This document shows, in pieces, positions 25,341 through 40,044 of a DNA stretch of 64,000 bases. Source of the DNA: a virus; IMG/VR virus record IMGVR_UViG_3300035436_000036, one strand, 5' to 3'. Every line of letters begins with the position of its first letter. Positions within the stretch are counted from its first letter, which is position 1. A program made the position numbers and the translations under genes. Under the pieces are notes generated by a model, which was not told the origin of the DNA, did no database searches, and saw only the letters and a list, made by a program, of their open reading frames with translations.

Positions 25341-25880
25341 ATGATATACTTAATCACCAACAAAGTAAACGGTAAACGTTACATAGGTAAGACTTCTCAA
25401 ACTATCGAAAAGAGATGGTATCAGCACTGTAAGAACGCAGAGTATGGTCACAACACCTATCTATACCGAGCCATTAGAAAATATGGTAAGGATAGCTTCG
25501 ACGTTGCTAAGCTATGTGATGGATTGAATGAGGAAGAGATCTTAATGATTGAAACACATTCACCTGAATATAACATGACTTTGGGTGGCGATGGTGGCGA
25601 CACTTCTACAAGTCCTAACTACAAGTTGGCTTTGTTAAACAGAGATATGTCGGGAGAGAATAATCCCAACTATGGAAAGAAAGGTCCATCCAGCCCTAAC
25701 TATGGTAAACGGAGAACCGAAGACCAGAAGCAAAATCATCGCGATGGCTACAAGGGGAAGCGTGTACCGGTTAGAGTAGATGGTGTTGATTATGAATCTG
25801 TCTCAAGAGCAGCTAAACTCTTGGGACGCAGTGAAAGATATGTGAGGCTACATGACGAACTTAATGAGTGGAAATACTAA
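25341..25880 (+). mobile_element. Freestanding GIY-YIG homing endonuclease (I-TevI/Seg-like) inserted between gp45 and gp44
   Basis: MIYLITNKVNGKRYIGKT GIY-YIG motif, R and E residues, NUMOD-like GENNPNYGKKGPSSPNYGKR repeats. Confidence 0.8.
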
Positions 25881-26811: not shown

Positions 26812-27185
26812 TGACTCCGTTCGACTTTATCAACTCAATCAACAACGGCAAAGACATCATGGTAGACGAGGCTACCGAGAATGCATATGTGCCGTTCGTT
26901 GTCAATAGAGGACTCTCGTACTTCGCCGATACTATCATGTATGCCAACGAGCTGAACAAGGTAGCTAATACTGACAAGAAGCTGCAATATCACTATCTCA
27001 TAAATACCATTATACCTCGAAAGAGGTTTAGTAAGTGGGCTAAAAAGCATGACGATAGTGACATTGAGCTTGTTATGAATAACTACAACTACAGTTACGA
27101 AAAGGCAGCACAGGTACTATCATTACTTACTAAACGTCAATTGGAAGAACTGAAAAATAAAAATAATAAAGGTGGAATACGATGA
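26811..27185 (+). CDS. gp62: Clamp loader small subunit gp62
   Basis: YHYLINTIIPRKRFSKWAKK vs T4 gp62 FNYLMAAVPRGKRYGKWAKL. Confidence 0.75.
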   Translation: MTPFDFINSINNGKDIMVDEATENAYVPFVVNRGLSYFADTIMYANELNKVANTDKKLQYHYLINTIIPRKRFSKWAKKHDDSDIELVMNNYNYSYEKAAQVLSLLTKRQLEELKNKNNKGGIR

Positions 27186-27580
27186 GTTTAGTAGATAGTT
27201 TAGTTGAGGTTCGCCTAGGCGAACAGGATGACTTCCTGAAAGTGAAAGAGACGCTGACTAGAATCGGTGTTGCATCACGCAAAGAGCAAGCTCTCTATCA
27301 ATCGTGCCACATTCTTCACAAGCAAGGTAAGTACTACATCGTACACTTTAAAGAGCTGTTCATGCTCGATGGCAAGCCTGCCAACTTCTCAGATGACGAC
27401 AAAGGTAGACGCAATACAATCGCTGCACTCCTAGAAGAGTGGGGACTGATTAAGGTTGTCGACTCCGAGCGTGTCAATGAGATCAAACTTCCTCTGAACC
27501 AGATCAAGATCCTCCCCTTCAAAGAGAAGAACGAGTGGCGTCTTGTAACAAAGTACAACATAGGCAGGAAGCCTCAATAA
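27182..27580 (+). CDS. regA: Translational repressor RegA
   Basis: DDFLKVKETLTRIGVAS...ALYQSCHILHKQGKYYIVHFKELF nearly identical pattern to T4 RegA. Confidence 0.9.
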   Translation: MSLVDSLVEVRLGEQDDFLKVKETLTRIGVASRKEQALYQSCHILHKQGKYYIVHFKELFMLDGKPANFSDDDKGRRNTIAALLEEWGLIKVVDSERVNEIKLPLNQIKILPFKEKNEWRLVTKYNIGRKPQ

Positions 27581-27584
27581 CTGT

Positions 27585-27612
27585 TGACTTTATTCCAATA
27601 ACAGTCTATATC
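27585..27612 (+). promoter_or_regulatory. Early promoter (TTGACT N16 TATATC)
   Basis: Member of repeated promoter family. Confidence 0.5.
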
Positions 27613-27618
27613 TAAGAT

Positions 27619-27843
27619 ATGTTGGAATGGATAAGAATCAGAGATGAAGTCACCTGCGAGGTGTATTACGATCTGTATGATCATGTTGTACAGAATACCG
27701 TAGTCACCATTCGCGAGGTATCAAAGCGGTATCAAGTCAGGATACTTGATCACGTACCATTCCATACAAAGACAGTAAGAGTTGCTAAAGAGGCAGGTCA
27801 GCACATTTATGAGCAGACCTGCGTCAAGCAATTGGCGTGTTGA
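27619..27843 (+). CDS. Hypothetical protein (74 aa)
   Basis: ORF after early promoter. Confidence 0.45.
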   Translation: MLEWIRIRDEVTCEVYYDLYDHVVQNTVVTIREVSKRYQVRILDHVPFHTKTVRVAKEAGQHIYEQTCVKQLAC

Positions 27844-27939: not shown

Positions 27940-28016
27940 GCGCCGTTAGCTCATCTGGATAGAGCGCGAAACTTCTAATTTTGAGGCAGCAGGTTCGAGT
28001 CCTGCACGGCGCACCA
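27940..28016 (+). tRNA. tRNA-Arg (anticodon TCT)
   Basis: Cloverleaf folded by eye; T-loop TTCGAGT, CCA encoded. Confidence 0.7.
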
Positions 28017-28021
28017 TATAC

Positions 28022-28096
28022 ACTCCCGTAGCTCAACGGTAGAGCTGACCGCTCATAACGGTTAGGTTAGGGGTTCGAATCCCTTCGGGAGTACCA
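28022..28096 (+). tRNA. tRNA-Met/Ile2 (anticodon CAT)
   Basis: Cloverleaf, T-loop TTCGAAT, CCA encoded. Confidence 0.7.
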
Positions 28097-28097
28097 T

Positions 28098-28175
28098 GTC
28101 ACGGTGGCAGAGTGGTCCAATGCACAGGTCTGCAAAACCTGAAAGCCGCGGGTTCGAATCCCGCCCGTGACTCCA
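28098..28175 (+). tRNA. tRNA-Cys (anticodon GCA)
   Basis: Cloverleaf, T-loop TTCGAAT, CCA encoded. Confidence 0.6.
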
Positions 28176-28181
28176 TATTGA

Positions 28182-28628
28182 GTGAGTACAATGATTGAAG
28201 AAGCGAAGCAAGCGATTATAGCATCAAGTCAGCAGTCCTCTGTCTACATTGGCTGTGACTCGATTCGTTTCAGAAAGAACAAGCAGTGGTACGCCAAGTA
28301 CTCTACTGTCGTAATCGTTCACATGGATACCAATAAGGGTGGAAGAATATTCCACTCTTCTGTAGACATGCCTGACTATGGTAACTTGAAGCAACGCCTG
28401 CTGATGGAAGTACAGCTTGCTGTTACAACTGCAACAGAGATTGTAGATGTAATCGGTGACCGTCACTTCGAGATCCATTTGGACATCAATCCGAATCCAA
28501 ACCATAAGTCTTCGGTTGCGGTCAAAGAAGCTCTTGGCTGGGTCAAGGGTTCACTCGGTATGGATGCTAAGATCAAGCCTCACAGCTTTGCCGCTACTCA
28601 TGCTGCGGATCACGTAGTCCGACATTAA
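28182..28628 (+). CDS. Hypothetical protein (148 aa) immediately after tRNA cluster
   Basis: ORF; no motif recognised. Confidence 0.5.
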   Translation: MSTMIEEAKQAIIASSQQSSVYIGCDSIRFRKNKQWYAKYSTVVIVHMDTNKGGRIFHSSVDMPDYGNLKQRLLMEVQLAVTTATEIVDVIGDRHFEIHLDINPNPNHKSSVAVKEALGWVKGSLGMDAKIKPHSFAATHAADHVVRH

Positions 28629-28629
28629 C

Positions 28630-28670
28630 TGTTGACCTTTTCGTGAAAATGTCCGATAAGGTATTATATA
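28630..28670 (+). promoter_or_regulatory. Early promoter cassette copy (GTTGACCTTTTCGTGAAAATGTCCGATAAGGTATTATATAAT)
   Basis: Repeat family member. Confidence 0.6.
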
Positions 28671-28687
28671 ATGAAAAGGCTTGAAAC

Positions 28688-29836
28688 ATGAACTACGAAT
28701 TTCCTACCATCCGAAACATCTCTGATGTACTGCCTGCTATCGAAGGTCGCGACGAATTCGTTGTGGCTGTCAAGGAAGGTTACACTGTCATCAATTACAA
28801 TGTGATGATGGCTGATACGTTCGACTGTGACATTCGTCGCGAGTGTCGTGGTATCATCTTCGATACTGAGTCGGGTGAGATCCTTCGTCGTCCGTACCAC
28901 AAGTTCTTCAACGTCAACGAGCGTGAAGAGACTCAGGACAATGTAGTCGATCTGTCGCAGTCACATGCTATCCTCGAGAAGCTTGATGGCTCGATGATCG
29001 CTCCGTTCATTGTGAATGGTCAAATGATCTGGGGTACGAAGATGGGTGCTACTGAGGTGGCAGAGCCTGTCGAGGACTTCGTCGAGCTCAACGAAGAGTA
29101 TCGTATATTTGCGCGGTTTACAATCCGCCGTGGATATACTCCTATCTTCGAATGGTGTTCGCGCAAGCAGCGCATCGTTCTTGATTATAAAGAAGATCAG
29201 CTTATTCTGACTGGTATTCGTGATCTTACGACTGGTCGATATATGTCCCACGATCTTATGGTAGCGCATGCCGAAGCATATCGTATTCCTACGGTTCGTA
29301 CGTTTGAACCTGAAACTGATATGAAGGCTTTCGTTGAAACTGTTCGTGATCTAGAAGATCGCGAAGGCTTTGTTGTTCGTTTCTCTGATGGTCATATGTT
29401 GAAGCTCAAGTGCGATTGGTATGTTCAGATCCACAAGGCCAAGGAAAAGATCCTTCAAGATCGTAACATCGTTGAGTTGATTCTTGATGATAAGCTCGAT
29501 GACGTGAAGGCTCACTTGCCTCAGGAAGATCGTGATCGGTTAACTGTGTTTGAGGATGACTTCAATTGGTCGCTTGCTGATACGGTTTTCATGTTAGATA
29601 ATGATCTTAGCTGGATACGCGAACAAGATATTGATCGTAAGACGTTTGCTCTCGAGCATGCTGGAAGGTACGATCAGTATATGCGAGCACTGATCTTCAA
29701 GAACTTTGAAGAACTTGGCCACCCAAAGCTTTGGACTGATGTTCGTAACACGATTCGTAACAACCTGACCAAGACTGTAAAGTACGAAGCAATTCGTGAT
29801 GCTTGGTTTCCTGGAGTGATTTACAATGAAGTCTAA
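28688..29836 (+). CDS. rnlA: RNA ligase 1 (T4 RnlA-like)
   Basis: Nucleotidyltransferase motif I EKLDGSMIAPF (T4 Rnl1 KEDGSLVST); 382 aa vs 374 aa for T4 RnlA. Confidence 0.7.
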   Translation: MNYEFPTIRNISDVLPAIEGRDEFVVAVKEGYTVINYNVMMADTFDCDIRRECRGIIFDTESGEILRRPYHKFFNVNEREETQDNVVDLSQSHAILEKLDGSMIAPFIVNGQMIWGTKMGATEVAEPVEDFVELNEEYRIFARFTIRRGYTPIFEWCSRKQRIVLDYKEDQLILTGIRDLTTGRYMSHDLMVAHAEAYRIPTVRTFEPETDMKAFVETVRDLEDREGFVVRFSDGHMLKLKCDWYVQIHKAKEKILQDRNIVELILDDKLDDVKAHLPQEDRDRLTVFEDDFNWSLADTVFMLDNDLSWIREQDIDRKTFALEHAGRYDQYMRALIFKNFEELGHPKLWTDVRNTIRNNLTKTVKYEAIRDAWFPGVIYNEV

Positions 29837-30044
29837 GTTTATTGCTCAAGAGATCGAACAATTAGTCACCACCTATATGACAGAGATTGGTCTTCAGACT
29901 TATTTCCGTAAGCCGCATGAAATGTTGCAAACTGACCAACGGTGGAAGATTCAAAAGATTGAAGCTCTTTGTCGGGAACTTCAAAAAAAGGTTCAGTCGC
30001 TCAGTGCAGACCTTATAAAGGAATTGGATAAAAAAGATGCCTAA
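29826..30044 (+). CDS. Hypothetical protein (72 aa)
   Basis: ORF. Confidence 0.4.
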   Translation: MKSKFIAQEIEQLVTTYMTEIGLQTYFRKPHEMLQTDQRWKIQKIEALCRELQKKVQSLSADLIKELDKKDA

Positions 30045-30519
30045 GTGTATTATTCTCGTTGGTGTTCCTGCATCTGGTAAGTCTACTTGGCACCGCAACA
30101 AGTTTGGTGAGTATCCGCCGGCTGTGGCGTCAACAGATAAAATAATCGAAGCAGTAGCTAGCAGCTACGGTATGACATATGATGAAGGATTCAAGGGACT
30201 GATTCAGTTTGCCGAACAGATAATGTGGAGGCAAATTACTACATGTCTGATGCGTGGATCTGACTTTATTATTGATCGCACTAACCTGTCGGTGAAGTCT
30301 CGTAAGAAGTTTATCGATAAGCTCAAGCTGCATCGCTACGAGATCGAGTGTGTAGTCTTCCCGATGCCTGGTAGTGACGAGCTGTCATCAGATGAGTGGA
30401 ATCGTCGCCTGAACTCGCGTCGAGGTAAGACTATCCCAGGCTACATCCTCTCGTCGATGATTGAGCATTATGAGCCACCTACGCTTGCAGAAGGTTTTTC
30501 GAAGATCACGATCATTTAG
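30037..30519 (+). CDS. Polynucleotide 5'-kinase (T4 Pnk kinase domain only)
   Basis: [21 protein letters not shown] vs T4 Pnk [29 protein letters not shown] vs ISDTNLN; ends with RRG like T4 SKRG; no fused phosphatase domain. Confidence 0.75.
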   Translation: [160 protein letters not shown]

Positions 30520-30522
30520 TTG

Positions 30523-30560
30523 TTGACCTTTTTGTGAAAATGTCCGATAAGGATATATCA
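30523..30560 (+). promoter_or_regulatory. Early promoter cassette copy
   Basis: GTTGACCTTTTTGTGAAAATGTCCGATAAGGATATATC + conserved leader CAAGAGTGAAAAGGAAG. Confidence 0.6.
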
Positions 30561-30582
30561 AGAGTGAAAAGGAAGATTGGTT

Positions 30583-30801
30583 ATGAAATACGATTTTGAA
30601 CAAGTTGCTGACGCTTTCGCGTTTCTCGACACTCTTCGTGAGTTTGGTAGCGTCAATATGTTTGGTGCTGCAACCTACGTAGCAGAAGAACTGGGTCACG
30701 ATAAAGCGACCTCACGTGAACTCGTCTCAATGTGGATGAAGTCGTTTGATGGTGAAGTGACCGCCGAAGATCGCGCGCGGTCGTTTGGAGAAATGGTGTG
30801 A
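30583..30801 (+). CDS. Hypothetical protein (73 aa)
   Basis: ATG after conserved leader. Confidence 0.4.
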   Translation: MKYDFEQVADAFAFLDTLREFGSVNMFGAATYVAEELGHDKATSRELVSMWMKSFDGEVTAEDRARSFGEMV

Positions 30802-31421
30802 CTAGATTCGTAAACAGGTTCGTTATCTCTGACCATCACCTTGGTCATACGAACTCGTGGGAAAAGTTCAAGCTAGAGGATGGTAGTCCTCTCCGTCCGT
30901 TCTCCTCTAACGAGGAAATGAACGAGACTATGATCGAGCGTCACAACGCTAAGGTCAAGGAGCAGGACACTGTCTACTTCCTGGGGGATGTTGTCATCAA
31001 CAAGAAGTATCTCGAGCTGGTGAAGCGGATGAACGGTCGTAAGATCCTCGTTCGTGGCAACCACGACATCTTCGGAGACGAGCTCTACTACGATGCAGGG
31101 TTCGAGCAGATCCATGGTGTTCGTGTGTTCGTGGATAAGTTCATCCTGAGCCATATCCCTCTACATCCTGATTGTGTGACAGAACGGTTCCGTGTCAACG
31201 TACACGGCCATCTTCATGCGAACCAGGTTATGAGCTGGCAGATCATTGATGAAGATCCGGTGTACAAGCCTGATCCTCGTTACCTTTGTGTATGTGTCGA
31301 GCAGACTAACTTTACGCCTTTGCATTTTGATGAGGTCGAGAAATTGATTCAACAGCGTTGGAAAGATTCAGAATACGAAGGGCCGGTGAAGGCCTGGGGA
31401 AATGGAAGTGGACCTAACTAA
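30798..31421 (+). CDS. Calcineurin-like metallophosphoesterase (candidate RNA 2',3'-phosphatase, Pnkp-type)
   Basis: Motifs SDHHLGH, GDVV, RGNHD, SHIP, GHLH. Confidence 0.7.
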   Translation: MTRFVNRFVISDHHLGHTNSWEKFKLEDGSPLRPFSSNEEMNETMIERHNAKVKEQDTVYFLGDVVINKKYLELVKRMNGRKILVRGNHDIFGDELYYDAGFEQIHGVRVFVDKFILSHIPLHPDCVTERFRVNVHGHLHANQVMSWQIIDEDPVYKPDPRYLCVCVEQTNFTPLHFDEVEKLIQQRWKDSEYEGPVKAWGNGSGPN

Positions 31422-31597
31422 TGAGTAAAATGATTTTAAGTTTTCTTATACTGTTTGCATTGGCGTTCGTCGGTGTGAAATTCTTTGTTGCTGCAACTGG
31501 TAGAGAAAAAATTCAGTTGATTAAATCACTGGGTTATAGTATGGTAATAACAGTAGTGGTGATGTCCATCATTGCTGGTATCGTTATCTTGTTTTAA
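31421..31597 (+). CDS. Small membrane protein (58 aa, two TM segments)
   Basis: ORF not in track; ATGA overlap with previous gene; hydrophobic. Confidence 0.3.
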   Translation: MSKMILSFLILFALAFVGVKFFVAATGREKIQLIKSLGYSMVITVVVMSIIAGIVILF

Positions 31598-31609
31598 AGG
31601 AAGTATATT

Positions 31610-32407
31610 ATGAATCGTATTGCAAAAGCTGCCGTCCTCGTTGGTCTGATGGCCACTGCTTCGGCTTGTACTCGTATCGAAACTGGTGAAGTTGGTGTTC
31701 GTCGTTCGTTCGACAAGACCATTGAAACTACAGAGCTGATGCCTGGATCTGTTAACCAGACTATGTTTGGTGATGTTATGACCTTCCCAACGAAGGACGT
31801 TCAGGTTGACGTATCGGACTTGACCCCTTTGGCGTCAGACAATTCGACAGTCGCTGACTTCGATATGGCTGTCATCTACTCGATCAATCCTGGTTCGGTT
31901 GCCGAACTGTATATCGAGAAGAACCGTGGCTTCCATGCCGAGACCGAAGAAGGTGATACTCTGTTGATGTATAACTACATTCGTCAGCTTGGTCGTAACG
32001 CTGCCTACAAGGTTGCACGTAAGTACGAGTCGTTGAAGATGGCTGACAACCGTGCAGAGATCGAACAGCTCGTTCGTCAAGAGATTGTCAACCAACTTGC
32101 TTCTGAGAAGCTTGATGGATCGATTGCAATCTCGCAGGTTCTGGTTCGTCAGATCAAGCCTGCAGCGAACATTGTAGCCTCGGCCAACCAGCTGGTGCAA
32201 GCGCAGAATGCTGAAAAGCAGAAGCAAGTAGAAGTTCGTACAGCGAAGTTGGAAGCAGAACGTATTGCTGCTCTTAACGCCAACGCTGGTGCAACGAAGT
32301 ACATGGAAGCAACTGCTCTCGTGACTATCGCAGAAGCTGTTAAGGAAGGCAAGGTCTCGACGATCATCGTTCCTTACGACTTCAAGGGAATTGTCAACGT
32401 AAAATAA
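31610..32407 (+). CDS. SPFH/band-7 (prohibitin/HflK-like) lipoprotein
   Basis: Lipobox ...TASAC; IETGEVGVRRSF SPFH start; Ala/Glu/Gln coiled-coil tail. Confidence 0.65.
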   Translation: MNRIAKAAVLVGLMATASACTRIETGEVGVRRSFDKTIETTELMPGSVNQTMFGDVMTFPTKDVQVDVSDLTPLASDNSTVADFDMAVIYSINPGSVAELYIEKNRGFHAETEEGDTLLMYNYIRQLGRNAAYKVARKYESLKMADNRAEIEQLVRQEIVNQLASEKLDGSIAISQVLVRQIKPAANIVASANQLVQAQNAEKQKQVEVRTAKLEAERIAALNANAGATKYMEATALVTIAEAVKEGKVSTIIVPYDFKGIVNVK

Positions 32408-32409
32408 AT

Positions 32410-32438
32410 GTTGACTTAAATTGGAAAAAGAGTATAAA
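32410..32438 (+). promoter_or_regulatory. Promoter for tRNA cluster 2 (TTGACT N17 TATAAA)
   Basis: ~10 nt upstream of tRNA-Asp 5' end. Confidence 0.6.
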
Positions 32439-32447
32439 TAAAACTCT

Positions 32448-32523
32448 GGACTCGTAGCTCAATTGGGAGAGCACCGCACTGTCACTGCGGAGGTAGTGGG
32501 ATCGAAACCCATCGAGTTCGCCA
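32448..32523 (+). tRNA. tRNA-Asp (GTC)
   Basis: Cloverleaf by eye. Confidence 0.7.
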
Positions 32524-32529
32524 GTTTGT

Positions 32530-32604
32530 GTCGGTGTGATGTTAATGGTAGCATGACGGTCTCCAAAACCGTTCGTCAAGGTTCGAATCCTTGCACCGAT
32601 GCCA
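32530..32604 (+). tRNA. tRNA-Trp (CCA)
   Basis: Cloverleaf by eye. Confidence 0.65.
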
Positions 32605-32629
32605 GACTTGTTCTTTCTCATTGTTGTTC

Positions 32630-32705
32630 GCGTCTGTAGCTCAGTTGGCAGAGCACTCCCCTGATAAGGGAGAGGTCGCAGGGTCAGGACCTGCCAGACG
32701 CACCA
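32630..32705 (+). tRNA. tRNA-Ile (GAT)
   Basis: Cloverleaf by eye; atypical T-loop GTCAGGA. Confidence 0.6.
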
Positions 32706-32761
32706 TTATGGGGTTGCTACCTAATAAGCACGCGAGGGGCCACGGTTAGCTCCTCAACATT

Positions 32762-32851
32762 GGAAGCGTGTCAGAGTGGTCGATTGATCTGGTCTTGAAA
32801 ACCAGCGTAGGCGCGAGTCTACCGTGGGTTCGAATCCCACCGCTTCCTCCA
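32762..32851 (+). tRNA. tRNA-Ser (TGA), type II
   Basis: Long variable arm, T-loop TTCGAAT. Confidence 0.7.
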
Positions 32852-32852
32852 T

Positions 32853-32927
32853 GCGGACGTAGCTCAGTGGTAGAGCTTCTCGTTGCCAACGAGAAGGTCG
32901 TGGGTTCGAATCCCATCGTCCGCTCCA
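32853..32927 (+). tRNA. tRNA-Gly (GCC)
   Basis: Cloverleaf by eye. Confidence 0.7.
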
Positions 32928-32929
32928 AT

Positions 32930-33004
32930 GGCCCGGTCGTCTAATGGCTAGGACACCGCTCTTTCACAGCGGAGAAGAGGGATCGAAACCCTTTCGGGCT
33001 ACCA
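32930..33004 (+). tRNA. tRNA-Glu (TTC)
   Basis: Cloverleaf by eye. Confidence 0.65.
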
Positions 33005-33010
33005 GATTTA

Positions 33011-33098
33011 GGAACGTGGGCAGGACGGTAATGCAACGCACTGCTAATGCGTACAACCTGTAATGGGTTGACAGGGTTCGACTCCCTGACGTTCCGCC
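33011..33098 (+). tRNA. tRNA-Ser (GCT), type II
   Basis: Long variable arm, T-loop TTCGACT. Confidence 0.7.
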
Positions 33099-33269
33099 AA
33101 GTTTATGGAGTCGTGAACACGGTAATGGTCGATCGCAGCGTACAGGGGTGTTCGGGGGCGATTGGCAACTCCGCCAAGATGAGGGAAACGCTAGGGCAAT
33201 GTCAGACGGTGCCTGCGTAGCGGGTGTCGTGAGGTGCTGGGTAACCGGCGGGGTCTGACACGAGTTTAT
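33099..33269 (+). ncRNA. Unassigned structured RNA segment inside tRNA operon (possible stable small RNA like T4 species 1/2 RNAs, or degenerate tRNAs)
   Basis: ~170 nt between tRNA-Ser and tRNA-His; GTCAGAC...GTCTGAC inverted repeat; both halves start with AGTTTATGG like tRNA leaders; no convincing cloverleaf. Confidence 0.3.
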
Positions 33270-33345
33270 GGTGGTCGAGGTGTTAATGGATACATGCTGG
33301 ATTGTGAATCCGGAGTTGCGGGCTCGATACCCGTCGATCACCCCA
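33270..33345 (+). tRNA. tRNA-His (GTG) with G-1
   Basis: Extra 5' G paired to discriminator C; T-loop CTCGATA. Confidence 0.65.
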
Positions 33346-33346
33346 T

Positions 33347-33422
33347 GGGGATATAGTCCAACGGCAGAGACAGGGCACTTAAAATGCCTCCAGCGTGAGT
33401 TCGAATCTCACTATCCCTACCA
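33347..33422 (+). tRNA. tRNA-like, anticodon TAA, with short (type I) variable arm
   Basis: Good acceptor/T arms (GTGAG TTCGAAT CTCAC), anticodon loop CTTAAAA; UAA normally belongs to type II tRNA-Leu. Confidence 0.5.
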
Positions 33423-33531
33423 GAATTTAGTAGACAGTGGGGCCTTCAGAAATGATTGCTACTAATAGCTCACCTTAATGGTCGGTACACCACGGTAAGG
33501 AGCAACCCACCAAACTTTTTTAAAATAACTG

Positions 33532-33570
33532 TTGCCTTTTTCGAAAATATGTCCTATAAGGATATATAAG
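33532..33570 (+). promoter_or_regulatory. Early promoter cassette copy (TTGCCT variant)
   Basis: ACTGTTGCCTTTTTCGAAAATATGTCCTATAAGGATATATAAG. Confidence 0.5.
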
Positions 33571-33591
33571 ATGAAGAAAAAGGAATTGGTT

Positions 33592-33795
33592 ATGGAAGTT
33601 TTTGTTTTGATGGGTGCGATGGATCACGATGCACATTACGTTCTTGGTGTTTATGCTTCTGAACAAGAAGCTGTAGATGCCTTGGGTGTTTACCTTCGTG
33701 ACCTTGATGAATCTTGGCATGATCGTTATTATGTTGATCGCCGTGTGCTCGGTGCACATGCGGAATACGATTCCGATCCTTTTCGACATCTGTAA
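33592..33795 (+). CDS. Hypothetical protein (67 aa) between tRNA clusters
   Basis: ATG after AAAAAGGAATTGGTT leader (same pattern as 30583 gene). Confidence 0.4.
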   Translation: MEVFVLMGAMDHDAHYVLGVYASEQEAVDALGVYLRDLDESWHDRYYVDRRVLGAHAEYDSDPFRHL

Positions 33796-33802
33796 GTTTA
33801 AT

Positions 33803-33878
33803 GGACGATTAGCTCAGTCGGTAGAGCGCGGGACTCTTAATCCTTAGGTCATAGGTTCGAATCCTATATCGTCTACCA
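33803..33878 (+). tRNA. tRNA-Lys (CTT)
   Basis: Cloverleaf by eye. Confidence 0.65.
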
Positions 33879-34093
33879 AGTTCTATGTTGGGTATCACAT
33901 AGGTGTGTCCTGAGGGAGTCATGACCCAAGGGAGAATGGAGAAAATCTCATATAGGATGCATAATGCATAACCATCTTATGATTATGAGAGGATGCGATA
34001 ATCCCCGCCCGACGCCAAATTATCCGTACCATTTTATAGGAGGTTGTATATGTCACTGCGGGAAGCAAGAAGCTAGGTAAAAATTTTAAAAAG

Positions 34094-34357
34094 ATGATTA
34101 CTCTGTATGAGTATTTCGGTAAAGAGTGTGGTGGTCTAGATTGGAGCGATAGTGCTCTCTATGATCTATACGTATTCGAGTCTACTGGTAAAGGTAGCAT
34201 AAAGCCGAATAACGGATATGCATATGGCAAACACACTATAGATATAACAATCTCTATGTGGAAAGAGGACTTAGATAAGACCCTCTGGCTACATGAATTA
34301 TATCAAGATCCTAACCTACCAGATTGGTGGTTGGATAAAGTTTTTAAGGGTCGGTAA
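34094..34357 (+). CDS. Hypothetical protein (87 aa)
   Basis: ORF between tRNAs; W-rich C-terminus. Confidence 0.4.
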   Translation: MITLYEYFGKECGGLDWSDSALYDLYVFESTGKGSIKPNNGYAYGKHTIDITISMWKEDLDKTLWLHELYQDPNLPDWWLDKVFKGR

Positions 34358-34432
34358 AGCCGGTGGCTCCGGCAGTCAGACTGTAAATCTGATCCGTTCG
34401 CGGGGGAGGATCGATACCTCACTGACCCACCA
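34348..34432 (+). tRNA. tRNA-Tyr (GTA), type II
   Basis: Anticodon stem TCAGA/TCTGA, loop CTGTAAA, long variable arm; 5' end overlaps stop of upstream ORF. Confidence 0.6.
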
Positions 34433-34440
34433 AGTTTTAA

Positions 34441-34516
34441 TGCCCTTTGGTGTAATTGGCAACACGTCTGATTTTGATTCAGAAGAGTCCAGGTTCGAGC
34501 CCTGGGAGGGCATCCA
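34441..34516 (+). tRNA. tRNA-Gln (TTG)
   Basis: Cloverleaf by eye. Confidence 0.7.
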
Positions 34517-34525
34517 AAAATAAAT

Positions 34526-34558
34526 GTTGACTTATATCTAAAAATGAGATATATAATA
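34526..34558 (+). promoter_or_regulatory. Promoter internal to tRNA cluster 3 (TTGACT ... TATATAAT)
   Basis: Upstream of tRNA-Pro. Confidence 0.5.
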
Positions 34559-34567
34559 TACTAGTAA

Positions 34568-34643
34568 CGGGAAGTAGCTCAGGTGGGAGAGCGCGTGGTT
34601 TGGGACCACGAGGTCGCAGGTTCGAGCCCTGTCTTCCCGACCA
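34568..34643 (+). tRNA. tRNA-Pro (TGG)
   Basis: Cloverleaf by eye. Confidence 0.7.
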
Positions 34644-34647
34644 TTTT

Positions 34648-34723
<76 letters not shown>

Positions 34724-34730
34724 GAATAAA

Positions 34731-34804
34731 GCGGGCTTGGCGTAGAGATAACGTACCTGGCTTCCACCCAGGGGTCAAGGGTTTGATTCCCTTAGTCCGC
34801 ACCA
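34731..34804 (+). tRNA. tRNA-Gly (TCC)
   Basis: Cloverleaf by eye. Confidence 0.7.
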
Positions 34805-34810
34805 GAATAC

Positions 34811-34885
34811 GGCACAGTAGCTCAGTGGTAGAGCGACGGTCTCATACGCCGTCAGCCGGTGGTTCGAATCCATCCTGTGTCACCA
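34811..34885 (+). tRNA. tRNA-Met/Ile2 (CAT), second copy
   Basis: Cloverleaf by eye. Confidence 0.7.
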
Positions 34886-35033
34886 TTTAGGAATGTGAAT
34901 ATGAGAAGCGAGTCTGCAGAATGTGTGATGTATGTACCCGACACTCCTTTAAACAGGGCTGCGTTTACAGACGAAACGGTTTTGGCAGAGATATATAAAG
35001 TTTCGAATATTAAAATTGTGTTTAAAGATAATG

Positions 35034-35108
35034 GGGGATTAGCTCAGTTGGGAGAGCGATTGCTTTGCAAGCAATAGGTCAACGGTTCGATCCCGTTATC
35101 CTCCACCA
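35034..35108 (+). tRNA. tRNA-Ala (TGC)
   Basis: Cloverleaf by eye; G3-U70 present (GGGGGAT...ATCCTCC). Confidence 0.7.
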
Positions 35109-35397
35109 AGTTTTGTAGCGCCTAAGGCATAGCCCGAAGGATAACCAAAGGTTCACCGTATTGGGGGCTCGCTACAAAAAAATATAGACCACCTCGGCTG
35201 AACCCGTGAAGTGATAAAGACATTGTTGCAACATTGTTTTTATCTGGGAAGATTGCAACGTCCGGAAGTAAGCAATCAAGGCACACTGTAGGTGGTCACT
35301 CACATTGACTCCGACCTCTGGTTTTAAGTCCCGACCTGAAATGACAGGCGGTAACATATGTGTCCTAGGAAACGCATTTGTTTGGGAGTTTTTATTT

Positions 35398-35473
35398 GCC
35401 TTTGTAGCTCAGTTGGTAGAGCAGTGGATTGAAGATCCACGTGTCGGGGGTTCGACTCCCTCCAAAGGCACCA
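35398..35473 (+). tRNA. tRNA-Phe (GAA)
   Basis: Cloverleaf by eye. Confidence 0.7.
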
Positions 35474-35592
35474 CAAGTTTGGGACTAAGCGGTGTGAATA
35501 GGGAACCCGCTGAATATGGACTGCTAGTAAAACTGTTAAAACTCACCTATGAGAAGCAAGGCATAAGATCCCAAAACATTATGCTCCAATGG

Positions 35593-35675
35593 TGGAATGG
35601 TAGACACGCTAGTCTTAGGAACTAGTGCCTAGTGCGTGGGGGTTCGAGTCCCTCTTGGAGTACCAAGTTTAATGC
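35593..35675 (+). tRNA. tRNA-Leu (TAG), type II
   Basis: Long variable arm, discriminator A. Confidence 0.7.
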
Positions 35676-35683
35676 CGGATTAG

Positions 35684-35758
35684 CTCAGTGGTAGAGCGCC
35701 TCGTTTACACCGAGGATGTCGGGAGTTCGACCCTCTCATCCGGTACCACGCCCTCGTA
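35684..35758 (+). tRNA. tRNA-Val (TAC)
   Basis: Cloverleaf by eye. Confidence 0.7.
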
Positions 35759-35759
35759 G

Positions 35760-35836
35760 CTCAACTGGATAGAGCTCTTGATTACGAATCAAAAGGTTGC
35801 AGGCTCGAATCCTGCCGAGGGCACCAATTAACTGTT
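35760..35836 (+). tRNA. tRNA-Arg (ACG)
   Basis: Cloverleaf by eye. Confidence 0.65.
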
Positions 35837-35844
35837 GACATTAA

Positions 35845-35873
35845 CAGCTATAAGTACTATAAAGAATTATGAA
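35845..35873 (+). promoter_or_regulatory. Promoter (TTGACA N17 TATAAA) upstream of tRNA-Asn
   Basis: sigma70-like spacing. Confidence 0.5.
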
Positions 35874-35879
35874 GTTTAT

Positions 35880-35954
35880 TCCCCAGTAGCTCAGTGGTAG
35901 AGCAGGTGACTGTTAATCACCTGGCCGGTGGTTCGAACCCATCCTGGGGAGCCA
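35880..35954 (+). tRNA. tRNA-Asn (GTT)
   Basis: Cloverleaf by eye. Confidence 0.7.
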
Positions 35955-36381
35955 ATTTCAGTTAAGCAGTACCGTCTGCTGAACCAACGTATATACCCTA
36001 ACAGATTATACGTTGTAAACAAAACGGATGAAGGAAGTTCCTGTGGCGACCAAGCGATTGGGGGAAGATAGGAACGTAAAGAGCGAAATTACCGACTGTA
36101 GCGAGTCGACACCTCAGTAGCCTTCTTATTACTAACACCGCCGCCCGTATGGTGTATAACAATCCCGGGCCTAGTTTCGATATCGGCCTCGACGGAGGCT
36201 GTAAGAAGTGTGACTGAATAATCCCCTTGTCAGTGGGGATAAAGTAGACTCGGGGATTGGTCTCCCGCTCAACCGGCAAACGAGTCGTAGGCTGAGATTA
36301 CAGACTGTAATTGACTGGGCCTTGGAGGTATAACTGAATCCTCCCACTTCGCTTTTATAGATATTATGTTAGGAGATTATT
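35955..36381 (+). ncRNA. ~425-nt non-coding, comparatively GC-rich region downstream of tRNA array (candidate structured RNA)
   Basis: No credible ORF on either strand (only a 93-aa antisense ORF of poor composition); multiple local inverted repeats (e.g. CAGTGGGGATAAAG...GGGATTGGTCTCCC, CACCGCCGCCCGTATGGTG). Confidence 0.25.
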
Positions 36382-36972
36382 ATGGTAGAAACTGTTTCAA
36401 TTAAACGTCATTGGGATAAGTACGATGACAATACTCACGAACTGCCTGAGGTTGTTCCTAGTGTAGTATTCAAGACTCGTGTCCGCGATGACTCAATCGA
36501 AGGCCCCAATCCTTACCGCTGGGAAGACAAGACTAGCTTTGACTACTTCGGTGGCAAGCGTGTCATCCTCTTCTCACTCCCTGGCGCATTCACCCCCACA
36601 TGTTCCACATACCAGCTTCCGGATTTCGAGAATAGCTACGAAGCATTCAAGAGCTTTGGTATCGATGAGATCTATTGTGTCTCTGTCAACGATGCCTTTG
36701 TGATGAACTGCTGGGCTCAACAGCAAGGTGTAGAGAACGTCAAGATGATTCCAGATGGTTCTGGCAAATTCACTCGCAAGATGCAGATGAATGTCTACAA
36801 AGACAACCTTGGGTTCGGTGAGCGCTCATGGCGTTATGCATGCCTTATCGAGAATGGTAAGATCCTCAAGTGGTTCATTGAACCAGGTATGGAAGACAAT
36901 TGCGAAGAGGATCCATACGGCCGTACGGATCCAGCAAAGATCCTCGAGTATGTCGAGGCGTTCTATGGCTGA
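36382..36972 (+). CDS. Peroxiredoxin (Prx5-like, 1-Cys/atypical 2-Cys)
   Basis: PGAFTPTCS peroxidatic-Cys motif. Confidence 0.85.
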   Translation: MVETVSIKRHWDKYDDNTHELPEVVPSVVFKTRVRDDSIEGPNPYRWEDKTSFDYFGGKRVILFSLPGAFTPTCSTYQLPDFENSYEAFKSFGIDEIYCVSVNDAFVMNCWAQQQGVENVKMIPDGSGKFTRKMQMNVYKDNLGFGERSWRYACLIENGKILKWFIEPGMEDNCEEDPYGRTDPAKILEYVEAFYG

Positions 36973-38126: not shown

Positions 38127-38564
38127 ATGAGAAAGAGTCTGCTCCTGCTACTCCTAGTAAGCAGCCCGCTCCAAGCAAGTGAGATAGTATTTGGATTTAA
38201 GAACCCTTCGTTCTCTGGCAACAATGCCGGAGCGCAATGGCTGACTATTGAGAATCAAGAGACTACTCGTAAAAAGGCTATAGCGGATAAGATCGAGGCC
38301 GAACTCAAGGCTCAGGCTCTTGAAGAGAAGAACTCGATCCTCAATCGCTTTATGAACAACCTACAGTCTCGTATCTACTCGCAGCTTGCTCAACAGCTGA
38401 CAAACAATCTGTTTGGTGAGATGGGTGGCGAAGAGGGTGAGTTCGGTCTTGAAGGCAACTCTATCAAGTACAAGAAGACTGACACAGAGATCACACTATC
38501 AATTACTGATGCGGCTGGTAACACTACCGAGATTATAATTCCGACGAGTGGCTTCAAATGGTAA
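38127..38564 (+). CDS. csgF: CsgF-like curli assembly protein
   Basis: Signal peptide then FGFKNPSFSGNNAGAQWL (E. coli CsgF FQFRNPNFGGNPNNGAFLL) and ITLSITDAAGNTTEIII (LQLNVTDRKTGQTSTIQV). Confidence 0.75.
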   Translation: MRKSLLLLLLVSSPLQASEIVFGFKNPSFSGNNAGAQWLTIENQETTRKKAIADKIEAELKAQALEEKNSILNRFMNNLQSRIYSQLAQQLTNNLFGEMGGEEGEFGLEGNSIKYKKTDTEITLSITDAAGNTTEIIIPTSGFKW

Positions 38565-39349
38565 GGAATTGGTTTCTCTTACTAATACCGCTGTTGCTGG
38601 GCGGGTGCATGTCAATGGGTTCTGGTGTGCTTGACATGCAGGATCGACCTGAACTTAGCCGCACACTGACAAAGGAATTGTATACTCTGAGCCCACCTAA
38701 GCAACAGGCTGTAGTTGCGGTGTATGACTTTCCGGACCTTACAGGTCAAAGAAGAGATAAGGATGGCATTGCCAGCATCTCGACTGCAGTGACTCAGGGT
38801 GGCACAGCGCTTCTAATCTCTGCACTGACAGATGCAGGTGGTGGTTCGTGGTTCAGAGTTGTTGAACGCAATCGCGTTGACGATCTTGCAAAGGAACGTC
38901 AGATTGTTAGACAGACTCGTGAAGAGTATATTGGAGAAGGAGCAAATAAGCTAGAGCCAATGCTCTTTGCTGGTTTGATTATCCAGGGTGGAATCATTGG
39001 CTATGATAGCAACATCCAGACTGGCGGGGCAGGCGCAAGGTATCTGGGCATTGGTGGAACAACAGTGTATCGTAAGGACCAAGTGGTAATTGCGTTGCGT
39101 GGTGTCAATACAAACACAGGGGAAGTGATCCTCAACGTACAGGTTTCCAAGACCGTGCTTTCGGTTGGCAGAGACCTTTCGGTTTTTAAGTTTGTTGATG
39201 TAGGAACAAAGCTGGTAGAAGCGGAAGCCGGCATGACTGAGAATGAAGCTAACACAATGGCAGTTAAGATGGCCATAGAGGAAGCAGTATTACAGTTAAT
39301 CAAACAAGGTATCGATAAGGGATACTTTAGCTATAGGGAAGAAGGATGA
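38558..39349 (+). CDS. csgG: CsgG-like curli secretion channel lipoprotein
   Basis: Lipobox LLGGC; AVVAVYDFPDLTGQ; IIGYDSNIQTGGAGARYLGIGGTTVYRKDQVVIALRGVNTNTGEVIL strongly similar to E. coli CsgG IIGYESNVKSGGVGARYFGIGADTQYQLDQIAVNLRVVNVSTGEIL. Confidence 0.9.
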   Translation: MVRNWFLLLIPLLLGGCMSMGSGVLDMQDRPELSRTLTKELYTLSPPKQQAVVAVYDFPDLTGQRRDKDGIASISTAVTQGGTALLISALTDAGGGSWFRVVERNRVDDLAKERQIVRQTREEYIGEGANKLEPMLFAGLIIQGGIIGYDSNIQTGGAGARYLGIGGTTVYRKDQVVIALRGVNTNTGEVILNVQVSKTVLSVGRDLSVFKFVDVGTKLVEAEAGMTENEANTMAVKMAIEEAVLQLIKQGIDKGYFSYREEG

Positions 39350-40044
39350 TGAAAAAGGCACTAGCACTTTTCATTATGTCTCTGATGACGAGTTCGTTAG
39401 CTTATGCACAGTCGACGACTAACTCGATTTTTATCGACCAAGTTGGTAACGGTAGTACAATTACAGTTACCCAGAAGGGTCAGAACAATAGAATTGGTTC
39501 TGAACAAAACCGTGTTGTGATTGAAGGCAACAACCAGACAATCACTTCTACGCAAGAAGGTAATAATAACCTTATTCAGGGTTCTATTACACAGGGCGAT
39601 AACGTCAGCATCGATTCGACCGTGACAGGTGACAACAATACAGTTACCTATGACATGGGTGATGCAGCAAGCGTTGCAGGTTCAACTAAGACACTCGCGG
39701 TGACAGGCGATTCGAACAACCTGACATTCAACCAGGGCACAGCAGCTTCGGCTACAGGGGCTACACAGAACATCACGTTCACCGGTGATACCAATACCTA
39801 TACCTCGACAATCAATACGGATGACGTAGTCAATGATATGACTATTGCTGGTGATGGTAACACGATCACAATGGTGCAAGATGGCACAGCTGGTAAGAAT
39901 GTTGAAATGGTGCTTACAGGCAGCACAAACAATGTTACTGTAAATCAAAAGAGCACAAACAATGTTGATACGATCAAGATCAATAGCACAAGCACTGGTA
40001 GCACTCTTGTTATTAATCAGTGCAACGCCGGCGGCCCTTGCTAA
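39346..40044 (+). CDS. Secreted curlin-repeat (CsgA/CsgB-like) protein candidate
   Basis: Signal peptide; ~20-residue imperfect repeats with Q-x-G-x-N-N / N-x-[VI]-T-x-x-Q cores, Gln/Asn/Thr/Gly-rich; encoded directly after csgF-csgG. Confidence 0.5.
   Translation: MMKKALALFIMSLMTSSLAYAQSTTNSIFIDQVGNGSTITVTQKGQNNRIGSEQNRVVIEGNNQTITSTQEGNNNLIQGSITQGDNVSIDSTVTGDNNTVTYDMGDAASVAGSTKTLAVTGDSNNLTFNQGTAASATGATQNITFTGDTNTYTSTINTDDVVNDMTIAGDGNTITMVQDGTAGKNVEMVLTGSTNNVTVNQKSTNNVDTIKINSTSTGSTLVINQCNAGGPC

Follow-up and report, generated by a model that had tools for sequence, protein, structure and literature searches.

tRNA gene array

The window analyzed here is a stretch of 64,000 nucleotides (64 kb) from the IMG/VR virus record IMGVR_UViG_3300035436_000036, and its most conspicuous feature is an island of tRNA genes extending from position 27940 to 35954. 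tRNA genes were sought over the whole window using ARAGORN with default settings and the Rfam model RF00005 at its gathering score. ARAGORN returned 24 tRNAs within the island, all on the plus strand, and made no other default call in the 64 kb; the same 24 exceeded the Rfam gathering score, with 39.8–75.2 bits and E-values from 7e-5 to 1e-14. One further gene, an atypical tRNA-Tyr(GTA), falls below the default thresholds and is backed by a relaxed ARAGORN search and by covariation, bringing the total to 25 genes and the coverage to all 20 amino acids. The first-pass annotation of this DNA had called 25 tRNAs between the same positions; each of these calls proved correct, and every anticodon that it listed was recovered.

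All 25 genes encode the 3' CCA, and bacterial identity features are intact, including G-1 opposite C73 in tRNA-His, U1-A72 in tRNA-Gln and tRNA-Asn, and C1-G72 in tRNA-Pro. The genes are co-oriented and flanked by T4-like core genes, as expected of a phage tRNA array. Gene identity, structure, conservation and context mark the island as a genuine array of phage tRNA genes.

The tRNAs form four physical groups (Rfam bit scores, in brackets below, are given for genes that ARAGORN also called by default). The first, at 27940–28175, holds three genes: tRNA-Arg(TCT) at 27940–28016 (64.9 bits), a CAT-anticodon tRNA, CAT1, at 28022–28096 (67.9) and tRNA-Cys(GCA) at 28098–28175 (65.6). The second, at 32448–33422, holds nine: tRNA-Asp(GTC) at 32448–32523 (60.5), tRNA-Trp(CCA) at 32530–32604 (56), tRNA-Ile(GAT) at 32630–32705 (62.8), the class II tRNA-Ser(TGA) at 32762–32851 (54.3), tRNA-Gly(GCC) at 32853–32927 (75.2), tRNA-Glu(TTC) at 32930–33004 (52.7), the class II tRNA-Ser(GCT) at 33011–33099 (47.6), tRNA-His(GTG) at 33271–33345 (39.8), whose G-1 is encoded at 33270, and a short-arm class I tRNA with a TAA anticodon at 33347–33422 (56.6). 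A single tRNA-Lys(CTT) at 33803–33878 (70.2) makes up the third group. The fourth, at 34348–35954, comprises 12 genes: the 85-nt tRNA-Tyr(GTA) at 34348–34432, tRNA-Gln(TTG) at 34441–34516 (58.1), tRNA-Pro(TGG) at 34568–34643 (63.3), tRNA-Thr(TGT) at 34648–34723 (64.9), tRNA-Gly(TCC) at 34731–34804 (60.3), a second CAT-anticodon tRNA, CAT2, at 34811–34885 (68.4), tRNA-Ala(TGC) at 35033–35108 (69), tRNA-Phe(GAA) at 35398–35473 (71.3), the class II tRNA-Leu(TAG) at 35583–35665 (56.5), tRNA-Val(TAC) at 35674–35748 (66.1), tRNA-Arg(ACG) at 35750–35826 (63.8) and tRNA-Asn(GTT) at 35880–35954 (69.2).

The earlier description of these genes as three clusters is a simplification: the tRNAs themselves stand, and their grouping does not, as there are four groups and at least five promoter-like sites. 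The set does outnumber the eight tRNAs of T4, as had been noted. The label "exceptionally large" is not warranted, since related IMG/VR contigs hold 16–29 tRNAs and published cyanophages and mycobacteriophages have comparable or larger sets. The island is, therefore, a further, large example of a phage feature that is already known. What is unusual is its content, namely two atypical tRNAs and the structured RNAs between tRNAs, which merit a specialist's second look.

Short sequence motifs recur at the gene borders. AGUU(U) often stands right after the CCA (e.g., at 33097, 33876, 34430, 35106 and 35663), and AGUUUA(A/U)(U/G) often lies directly 5' of a tRNA start (e.g., at 33263, 33795, 35666 and 35873). 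The 8-kb array contains 5 of the 10 CCAAGTT sites and 5 of the 11 AGTTTAWK sites on the plus strand of the window. We presume that these flanking AGUU motifs correspond to an RNase E-type RN↓WUU site. Two small ORFs are also found inside the array. ORF 33571–33795 is kept in relatives and belongs to phrog_3002, a family of unknown function, and for ORF 34094–34357, which overlaps tRNA-Tyr by 10 nt, no homologue was found in related loci or in PHROGs.

Short-arm tRNA(UAA)

The first-pass annotation had listed "an odd TAA species". The TAA anticodon stands; the oddity does not, because the gene belongs to a conserved and widespread short-arm type and is not an aberration. The tRNA measures 76 nt, with a 5-nt variable loop (CCAGC), G1.U72, A73, A14, A15 and a 3-bp D stem. 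It lacks the variable arm of at least 10 nt that defines a class II tRNA-Leu, and it carries the leucyl-tRNA synthetase (LeuRS) identity set A73, A14, A15(-U48) and G18G19.

An alignment of 13 homologues was assembled from 11 variants of the phage group (the window and 10 related contigs), Prochlorococcus phage P-SSM7 and an Acinetobacter phage. In this alignment, 99.6% of the cells at paired positions are paired, and 16 of the 20 pairs have changes on both sides. Every homologue has A14, A15, the D-loop GG, A73 and the 3-bp D stem; most also have U48, and the window copy has C48. Together with U48, the residues A14, A15, GG and A73 are identity elements of the E. coli LeuRS, for which the long arm is dispensable (PMC9976931). 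These features identify the gene as a probable tRNA-Leu(UAA), which would read UUA and UUG and would not act as a stop-codon suppressor.

The short-arm type is annotated as tRNA-Leu in cultured phages of Prochlorococcus, Synechococcus, Acinetobacter, Lactobacillus and Bacillus, and unannotated matching copies occur in a Pseudomonas phage and in another Synechococcus phage. A pattern scan of bacterial genomes found it in at least 120 contigs, overwhelmingly Actinomycetota chromosomes among the matches listed, where ARAGORN calls the copies as stand-alone tRNA-Leu(TAA) genes of 74–77 nt. These bacterial contigs (L139–L258) include, for example, L140 (1581–1654) and L143 (5461–5536); the taxa comprise Corynebacterium, Nocardia, Microbacterium, Bifidobacterium and acI lineages, with a few other phyla as well. 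The known short-arm genes, including those of P-SSM7, Acinetobacter phage YMC13/03/R2096, the Lactobacillus and Bacillus phages and Actinomycetota, have in common a length of 73–78 nt, a 5-nt variable loop, the anticodon loop CUUAAAA, A73, A14/A15 and a 3-bp D stem. The lineage of the window's phage differs from the cellular genes in the first pair, which is an invariant G1.U72 in the former and G1-C72 in the latter.

Two related contigs, L066 and L072, carry class II versions of tRNA(UAA) with the same acceptor stem, which prompted the idea that the short-arm form arose solely within the phage lineage, from a tRNA that lost its long arm. This idea was dropped, given that the same type is present in at least 120 bacterial contigs, mostly Actinomycetota. 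The short-arm tRNA(UAA) is a widespread natural tRNA type. Two general reviews of tRNA structure and identity describe cytosolic tRNA-Leu as class II (PMC7609411, PMC9976931), and we found no description of a short-arm bacterial or phage tRNA-Leu in the literature; a short-arm tRNA(UAA) with leucine identity is nevertheless common in phages and Actinomycetota.

Atypical tRNA-Tyr

The tRNA-Tyr(GTA) gene at 34348–34432 has a long variable arm, a shifted 5-bp D stem and the T loop AUCGAUA, and its first 10 nt overlap the end of ORF 34094–34357, including the stop codon. It was missed by ARAGORN with default settings and by Rfam even at E ≤ 5. It was called with the ARAGORN options -ps (95%) and -ps90 as the sole extra call on both strands of the 64 kb, and spurious calls in the window start only at the 85% threshold. 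At minimum free energy, it folds into a cloverleaf that includes the long variable arm (z-score −2.7). The GUA anticodon, A73, G1-C72 and the long variable arm agree with bacterial tRNA-Tyr, and the D arm and T loop are non-canonical.

Variants were collected by scanning IMG/VR with the T-arm and 3' acceptor sequence of the gene. Ten distinct variants in related viral contigs keep the cloverleaf, with 98.8% of cells paired and four compensatory pairs in the anticodon and D stems. ARAGORN with default settings calls none of the ten. Default tRNA detectors can, thus, undercount phage tRNAs; in this island, full coverage of the 20 amino acids depends on the gene that they overlooked.

Identity of the two CAT tRNAs

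The two tRNAs with a CAT anticodon, which the first-pass annotation had left to be told apart, were typed by identity elements and alignment. Neither has the initiator signature, i.e., a C1xA72 mismatch together with G-C pairs 29-41, 30-40 and 31-39. CAT1 has A1-U72 and the anticodon stem GACCG/CGGTT, and CAT2 has G1-C72, A73 and the anticodon stem ACGGT/GCCGT.

CAT1 further shows C4-G69, C5-G68, G27.U43 and A38, and it has the variable loop AGGTT in common with T4 tRNA-Ile(CAT). We take C4-G69 and C5-G68 to be the acceptor-stem determinants of TilS known from work in E. coli. The best full-length database matches of CAT1 are tRNA-Ile(GAT) genes of T5-like Vibrio phages; a similarity search against E. 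coli genomes gave no match. In addition, A1-U72 has been reported as a context-dependent antideterminant for MetRS (PMC9976931). With a CAU anticodon, an Ile-type body and the C4-G69/C5-G68 pairs, the gene at 28022–28096 has the sequence features of tRNA-Ile2, and we infer that it is a lysidine-type tRNA-Ile2 for AUA. CAT2 is most plausibly an elongator tRNA-Met; a similarity search of CAT2 in phages matched mixed isotypes and was uninformative. The pair thus resolves, by identity elements, into a probable Ile2 and a probable elongator Met; an initiator is not among them.

Decoding capacity and codon usage

The GC content of the window is 46%. In its ORFs, AAG accounts for 78% of the codons for Lys, UUA for 5% of those for Leu and AUA for 9% of those for Ile. 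Under strict wobble, the tRNA set reads 47 of the 61 sense codons, corresponding to 79% of the phage codon usage. These values rise to 53 of 61 codons (92% of usage) with cmo5U-type wobble and to 59 of 61 codons (98%) with U34 superwobble. Each four-codon box is served by a U34 tRNA or by the I34-type tRNA-Arg(ACG), and the further members are Gly-GCC, Arg-TCT, Leu-UAA, Ile2-CAU, Met and Lys-CUU.

By its gene content, the set is a nearly complete elongator complement. It includes tRNAs even for the rarest codons of the phage (UUA and AUA), which indicates a general set and not one selective for particular codons. An initiator tRNA and tRNA-Lys(UUU) are not part of it. Relatives carry Lys-TTT next to Lys-CTT, and no decayed tRNA-Lys(TTT) was found beside Lys-CTT in the window.

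Structured RNAs between and after the tRNAs

Comparison with relatives revealed that the spacers of the island contain discrete, conserved modules that move independently of one another. Single-sequence folding of the spacers gave unremarkable z-scores, and the structures became visible only through this comparison.

The best represented is element c at 35187–35297 (plus strand, as are all modules described here), which has a 7-bp P1 helix (GACCACC/GGTGGTC) and a covarying hairpin. P1 covaries (GACTTCC/GGAAGTC, GGCTTCC/GGAAGCC and others), and the motifs GCUGAACC, GGAAGAU and UCAAGGCACAC are invariant. Element c was found as 35 variants in ~49 IMG/VR contigs (L010, L016, L023, L027, L049, L068 and ~40 more), in size classes of 81, ~119 and ~137 nt. 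Across the 35 variants, it usually lies 5 nt past the CCA of tRNA-Ala and 7–16 nt before tRNA-Leu(TAG) or tRNA-Phe. A structured RNA at 35477–35574, between tRNA-Phe and tRNA-Leu(TAG), has the motifs GCUGAAU and CAAGGCA in common with element c; three variants are known, and its P1 covaries (GGGA/TCCC, GGGG/CCCC, GGGT/ACCC). The region 35109–35186 is a further conserved spacer RNA module with covarying helices.

Two modules occur in the second tRNA group. At 33107–33177 lies a tRNA-like RNA without a cloverleaf, here called the acceptor mimic, in which a 7-bp acceptor-like stem (GGAGTCG/CAACTCC) is followed by G and then CCA; its six variants in 13 IMG/VR contigs always follow a tRNA-Ser. Module d at 33178–33261 has 13 variants in 15 contigs, always 14–16 nt upstream of tRNA-His, and its closing helix covaries (TGTCAGAC/GTCTGACA, TATCAGAC/GTCTGATA, GATTAGAC/GTCTAATC).

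Three more elements follow the last tRNA. An RNA module at 35959–36027 (five variants) contains a candidate pseudoknot between the loop CCGT and a 3' ACGG, which covaries to CCGG/CCGG. Module a at 36033–36122, a multi-helix junction with 21 variants in 31 contigs, usually begins directly after the CCA of tRNA-Asn or tRNA-Met; in an alignment of 15 variants, 10 of its 27 predicted pairs are compensatory. Finally, a full-length match to the manA RNA motif (RF01745) lies at 36185–36354, with 64.8 bits against a gathering score of 55.2, upstream of a peroxiredoxin ORF (36382–36972; Redoxin/AhpC match). The relative L016 keeps the manA motif and lacks the peroxiredoxin gene, so the motif is not tied to this gene.

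Element c, modules a and d and the acceptor mimic match no Rfam family; the spacers were searched to E ≤ 10 with nothing credible returned. The positions of element c, module d and module a are tRNA-like slots, as are those of T4 rnaC and rnaD. The spacer RNAs have no sequence homology to these two, and blastn aligned only the T-arm of rnaC with tRNA T-arms. They are candidates for new RNA families, analogous to the long-unexplained rnaC and rnaD of T4. That at least four undescribed structured RNA families (element c, modules a and d, and the acceptor mimic), together with the divergent tRNA-Tyr, make the island more than a tRNA set is a speculative view, to which we give rather little credence. 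If it were true, and the RNAs were matured with the tRNAs, they could be helpers of RNase P or of processing, nuclease decoys or inhibitors, or regulators of tRNA supply, and the island would serve both translation autonomy and counter-defence as one integrated, RNA-based module.

Promoter-like sites

Five promoter-like sites on the plus strand, each a consensus match, accompany the array: TTGACT-N17-TATATC at 27584–27612, upstream of ORF 27619–27843 and the first tRNA group; TTGACT-N16-TATAAA at 32411–32438, 9 nt upstream of tRNA-Asp; TTGCCT-N17-TATAAG at 33532–33560, upstream of ORF 33571–33795 and the Lys, Tyr and Gln tRNAs; TTGACT-N17-TATATA at 34527–34555, upstream of tRNA-Pro; and TTGACA-N17-TATAAA at 35835–35863, upstream of tRNA-Asn. 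The second, fourth and fifth correspond to three sigma70-like sites cited earlier, all of which are present. The sites at 32411 and 34527 have a 17-nt upstream motif, AAATAAATGTTGACTTA, in common; with up to three mismatches, it has seven matches on the plus strand of the window, against 0.24 expected.

A promoter-like cassette of ~45 nt, TGTTGACC-TTTTCGTGAAAAT-NN-CGGATAAGGGTATATCAAGAGTG, recurs upstream of many small genes (positions 28630, 30521, 33530, 43094, 54796, 55667, 56614, 58154 and 62327). It may represent an early promoter with a leader and may mediate module shuffling in variable regions.

RNA-repair and other neighbouring genes

Several protein-coding genes lie between the first and second tRNA groups, three of them, all on the plus strand, with predicted roles in RNA repair. 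The gene at 28688–29836 encodes an RNA ligase of the T4 Rnl1 family (PF09511, E 9e-35; PDB entry 2c5u of T4 Rnl1, E 4.5e-32). It is followed at 30037–30519 by a gene for a 160-aa P-loop polynucleotide-kinase-like protein (PF13671; phrog_505, polynucleotide kinase), which matches the PNKP kinase domain (E 4e-5) and T4 Pnk (1ly1, E 0.003). A calcineurin-type metallophosphoesterase is encoded at 30798–31421 (PF00149; phrog_547, E 1e-48; PDB aq_1665) and is a candidate enzyme for healing 2',3'- or 3'-phosphate ends. The remaining products are an RNaseH-like protein, role unknown, at 28182–28628 (plus strand; PF04308, phrog_11311) and a Band7/SPFH protein at 31610–32407.

T4 Pnkp and Rnl1 heal and seal tRNA after cleavage by PrrC. 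The Rnl1-family ligase of this pathway has its counterpart here, and the bifunctional Pnkp, in which a 5'-kinase is fused to an HAD 3'-phosphatase, is represented by a kinase domain only. The gene-split kinase and calcineurin-type phosphoesterase resemble the domain chemistry of bacterial Pnkp. Together, the ligase, kinase and phosphoesterase are predicted to supply the activities needed to heal and seal cleaved tRNA. In P-SSM7, a ligase annotated as "tRNA ligase" also lies among the tRNAs.

Genome context and relatives

T4-type genes are found on both sides of the island: upstream, those for the tail sheath, a gp46-like SMC protein, the gp45 clamp, the gp44/gp62 clamp loader and RegA; downstream, those for the family B DNA polymerase (gp43), UvsX and a gp41-like helicase. 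The clamp loader shares 61% identity with its counterpart in Stenotrophomonas phage DLP_6; the values for Methylophilales phage Melnitz, cyanomyoviruses and Pelagibacter phage Mosig are 52–59%. In DLP_6, the order is the same (clamp loader, RegA, ~5.7 kb, DNA polymerase), with no tRNAs at that position. In the window, regA (27182–27580) and the polymerase gene (48067–50622) are separated by ~20 kb, and the tRNA island is part of this variable insert of a T4-like myovirus genome. Other cargo of the insert comprises a CsgG curli-secretion homologue (38558–39349), a FecR-domain protein (39962–41053) and a CHASE2-sensor adenylate/guanylate cyclase (41034–43091), which are unusual for a T4-like phage. 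A GIY-YIG protein gene (25341–25880) lies just upstream of gp44.

A near-identity DNA search of the island against 50,697 phage records gave isolated tRNA-sized matches only and no close relative. Relatives were instead found by scanning IMG/VR with the Band7/SPFH protein, which recovered more than 80 related contigs with mosaic synteny. The tRNA-bearing ones hold their tRNAs in shuffled order, and much of the array is common to L027, L016, L060 and L092. The island is a plastic, dispensable module of an abundant uncultured T4-like lineage.

Some relatives carry unusual tRNAs of their own. CTA-anticodon tRNAs, of the amber-suppressor type and labelled "Pyl" by ARAGORN, occur in L041 (7396–7470), L044 (14305–14382) and L072 (19098–19172); the window has none. 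TAT-anticodon tRNAs (Ile, AUA) of 91–94 nt with a long extra arm, i.e., unusual class II-like tRNA-Ile, occur in L010 (7096–7189), L043 (7114–7204), L044 (12742–12833), L049 (9201–9294) and L066 (6490–6583), and in their place the window has the CAT (Ile2-type) tRNA.

Comparison with known systems

The closest parallels are the T4-like cyanophages S-CRM01, S-CBWM1, S-PM2 and S-CREM1, each of which has a full set or more than 20 tRNAs (PMC9964418). The island resembles these tRNA-rich cyanophages in its T4-like backbone, at least 24 tRNAs for all or nearly all amino acids, the manA motif and an aquatic, non-oligotrophic origin. It differs from them in its location between regA and gp43, the embedded RNA-repair genes, the atypical tRNA-Tyr and the unannotated structured RNAs.

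Like the tRNA region of T4 (eight tRNAs, rnaC, rnaD and segB), the island consists of co-oriented polycistrons and is accompanied by an Rnl1 homologue, and the eight T4 anticodons are a subset of its own. T4 rnaC and rnaD sit beside tRNA-Arg, and the non-tRNA RNAs of the island occupy similar slots. Unlike T4, the island has three times as many tRNAs, and its repair genes adjoin them. The Leu(UAA) tRNA is short-armed in the island and class II in T4; the T4 kinase is fused to an HAD phosphatase, whereas the island kinase is unfused and accompanied by a separate calcineurin-type phosphoesterase.

Arrays of 20–36 tRNAs in T5-like phages and in mycobacteriophage cluster C1, which averages 33 tRNAs (PMC10264068), have been shown or proposed to replace host tRNAs destroyed by nucleases (PMC11555353, PMC11464382, PMC10264068). 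These lineages are unrelated to the window phage, for whose island such a role is hypothetical.

Possible function of the island

The first-pass annotation had suggested codon-usage independence from the host or compensation for tRNA-targeting defences. Both are hypotheses already established for phage tRNAs and plausible here, and this interpretation finds partial support. The island probably serves to keep phage translation going independently of a declining host tRNA pool, with the repair genes as a second line. Expression, processing, charging and selective benefit may be pictured as follows. The tRNAs would be expressed from several short polycistrons, with an early-type sigma70-like promoter in front of each, and the short AU-rich spacers or structured modules would allow maturation by host RNase P, RNase E and 3' exonucleases. 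As the host pool declines, through host shut-off and tRNA turnover or through tRNA-cleaving defence nucleases, the charged phage set would substitute for the missing host tRNAs. The Rnl1 ligase, Pnk-like kinase and phosphoesterase would reseal cleaved tRNAs, as T4 Pnkp/Rnl1 do after PrrC.

The near-complete, unselective set with its embedded repair cassette favours such general host independence over fine codon compensation. The lack of an initiator tRNA and of Lys-UUU matches the pattern reported for phages facing anticodon nucleases; phages tend to do without an fMet gene and to combine Lys-UUU with ligases (PMC10264068). Phage tRNAs are known to rescue infection from PrrC, retron-Eco7 PtuAB and PARIS, the effective species being tRNA-Tyr and tRNA-Lys (PMC11555353; PMC11464382). 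The support that these parallels lend to a role in tRNA loss or defence is circumstantial.

Several observations weigh against sustained translation as the function. AAA (22% of Lys codons) and CGG are read under no wobble assumption, and with no initiator tRNA encoded, independence from the host would be incomplete. No tRNA lies within 10 kb in several contigs whose Band7 protein is 93% identical, and the closest syntenic relative, L027, has kept the tRNAs without the ligase and kinase; no single part is, therefore, indispensable, and the linkage of tRNAs and repair genes is not fixed. The promoter-like sites are consensus matches only, and a generic promoter/terminator scan, with an overall count near the shuffled expectation, did not list the three cited ones, because the scanner accepts only T as the last base of the −10 hexamer. 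In addition, the window covers part of a genome, and more tRNAs may lie elsewhere in it.

An alternative, possible though in our view doubtful, is codon-usage compensation, in which the tRNAs would serve codons commoner in the phage than in the host and thereby speed translation of the phage genes, the late ones in particular. It is the explanation most often given in the literature (PMC9964418; PMC10264068), and it would account for the encoding of tRNA-Lys(CUU) alone in a phage that uses AAG for 78% of Lys and for the tRNAs for AGA/AGG, AUA and UUA, classic host-rare codons that T4 supplies too. However, the set is nearly complete and not selective, and the codons read under strict wobble, 77% of the sense codons, make up 79% of usage, i.e., they are not enriched. 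No codon-compensation signal was found in the tRNA-rich mycobacteriophages either (PMC10264068).

Dedicated counter-defence can be put forward with similar reserve, as a tentative explanation. Here, nuclease-insensitive phage tRNAs would replace host tRNAs cut by tRNases, anticodon nucleases among them (PrrC/RloC, VapC, PARIS AriB or the retron/Septu PtuAB), the cassette would carry out repair, and tRNA-Tyr and Lys-CUU would be escape variants. The Rnl1-family ligase, Pnk-like kinase and phosphoesterase between the tRNA groups fit this scheme, and the absent initiator and Lys-UUU are tRNAs cut within the anticodon by known nucleases (PMC10264068). The tRNA-Tyr is divergent in the D arm, T loop and variable arm yet conserved, and tRNA-Tyr is a target of retron-Eco7 PtuAB (PMC11555353) and of Septu (PMC13096335). 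The case is, however, entirely circumstantial. Against it, relatives have Lys-UUU beside Lys-CUU, some have a canonical tRNA-Tyr, and the repair genes are missing from L027.

Host-range buffering, by which a full set would permit hosts of differing GC content and tRNA repertoires, is unlikely. It has been proposed for cyanophage tRNAs (as cited in PMC9964418), and the lineage, abundant and mosaic, occurs in many metagenomes, but close relatives from similar samples lack the island. That the island is passenger DNA, a mobile shuffling module of little function or with pseudo-tRNAs, is highly improbable: order and content are indeed shuffled among relatives, some of which miss the island, and repeated promoter cassettes flank modules, but each of the 24 default calls scores above the Rfam gathering threshold, the CCA ends and identity elements have stayed intact, and the compensatory substitutions in the two atypical tRNAs imply purifying selection on structure.

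The reading that we prefer, phage translation sustained as the host tRNA pool declines, bears on a current debate in which large phage tRNA arrays are central, namely codon compensation versus evasion of tRNA-cleaving immunity. Its near-full elongator set lacks an initiator and Lys-UUU and is joined to a divergent tRNA-Tyr and a neighbouring repair cassette, a combination that makes the island a compact natural test case for this debate.

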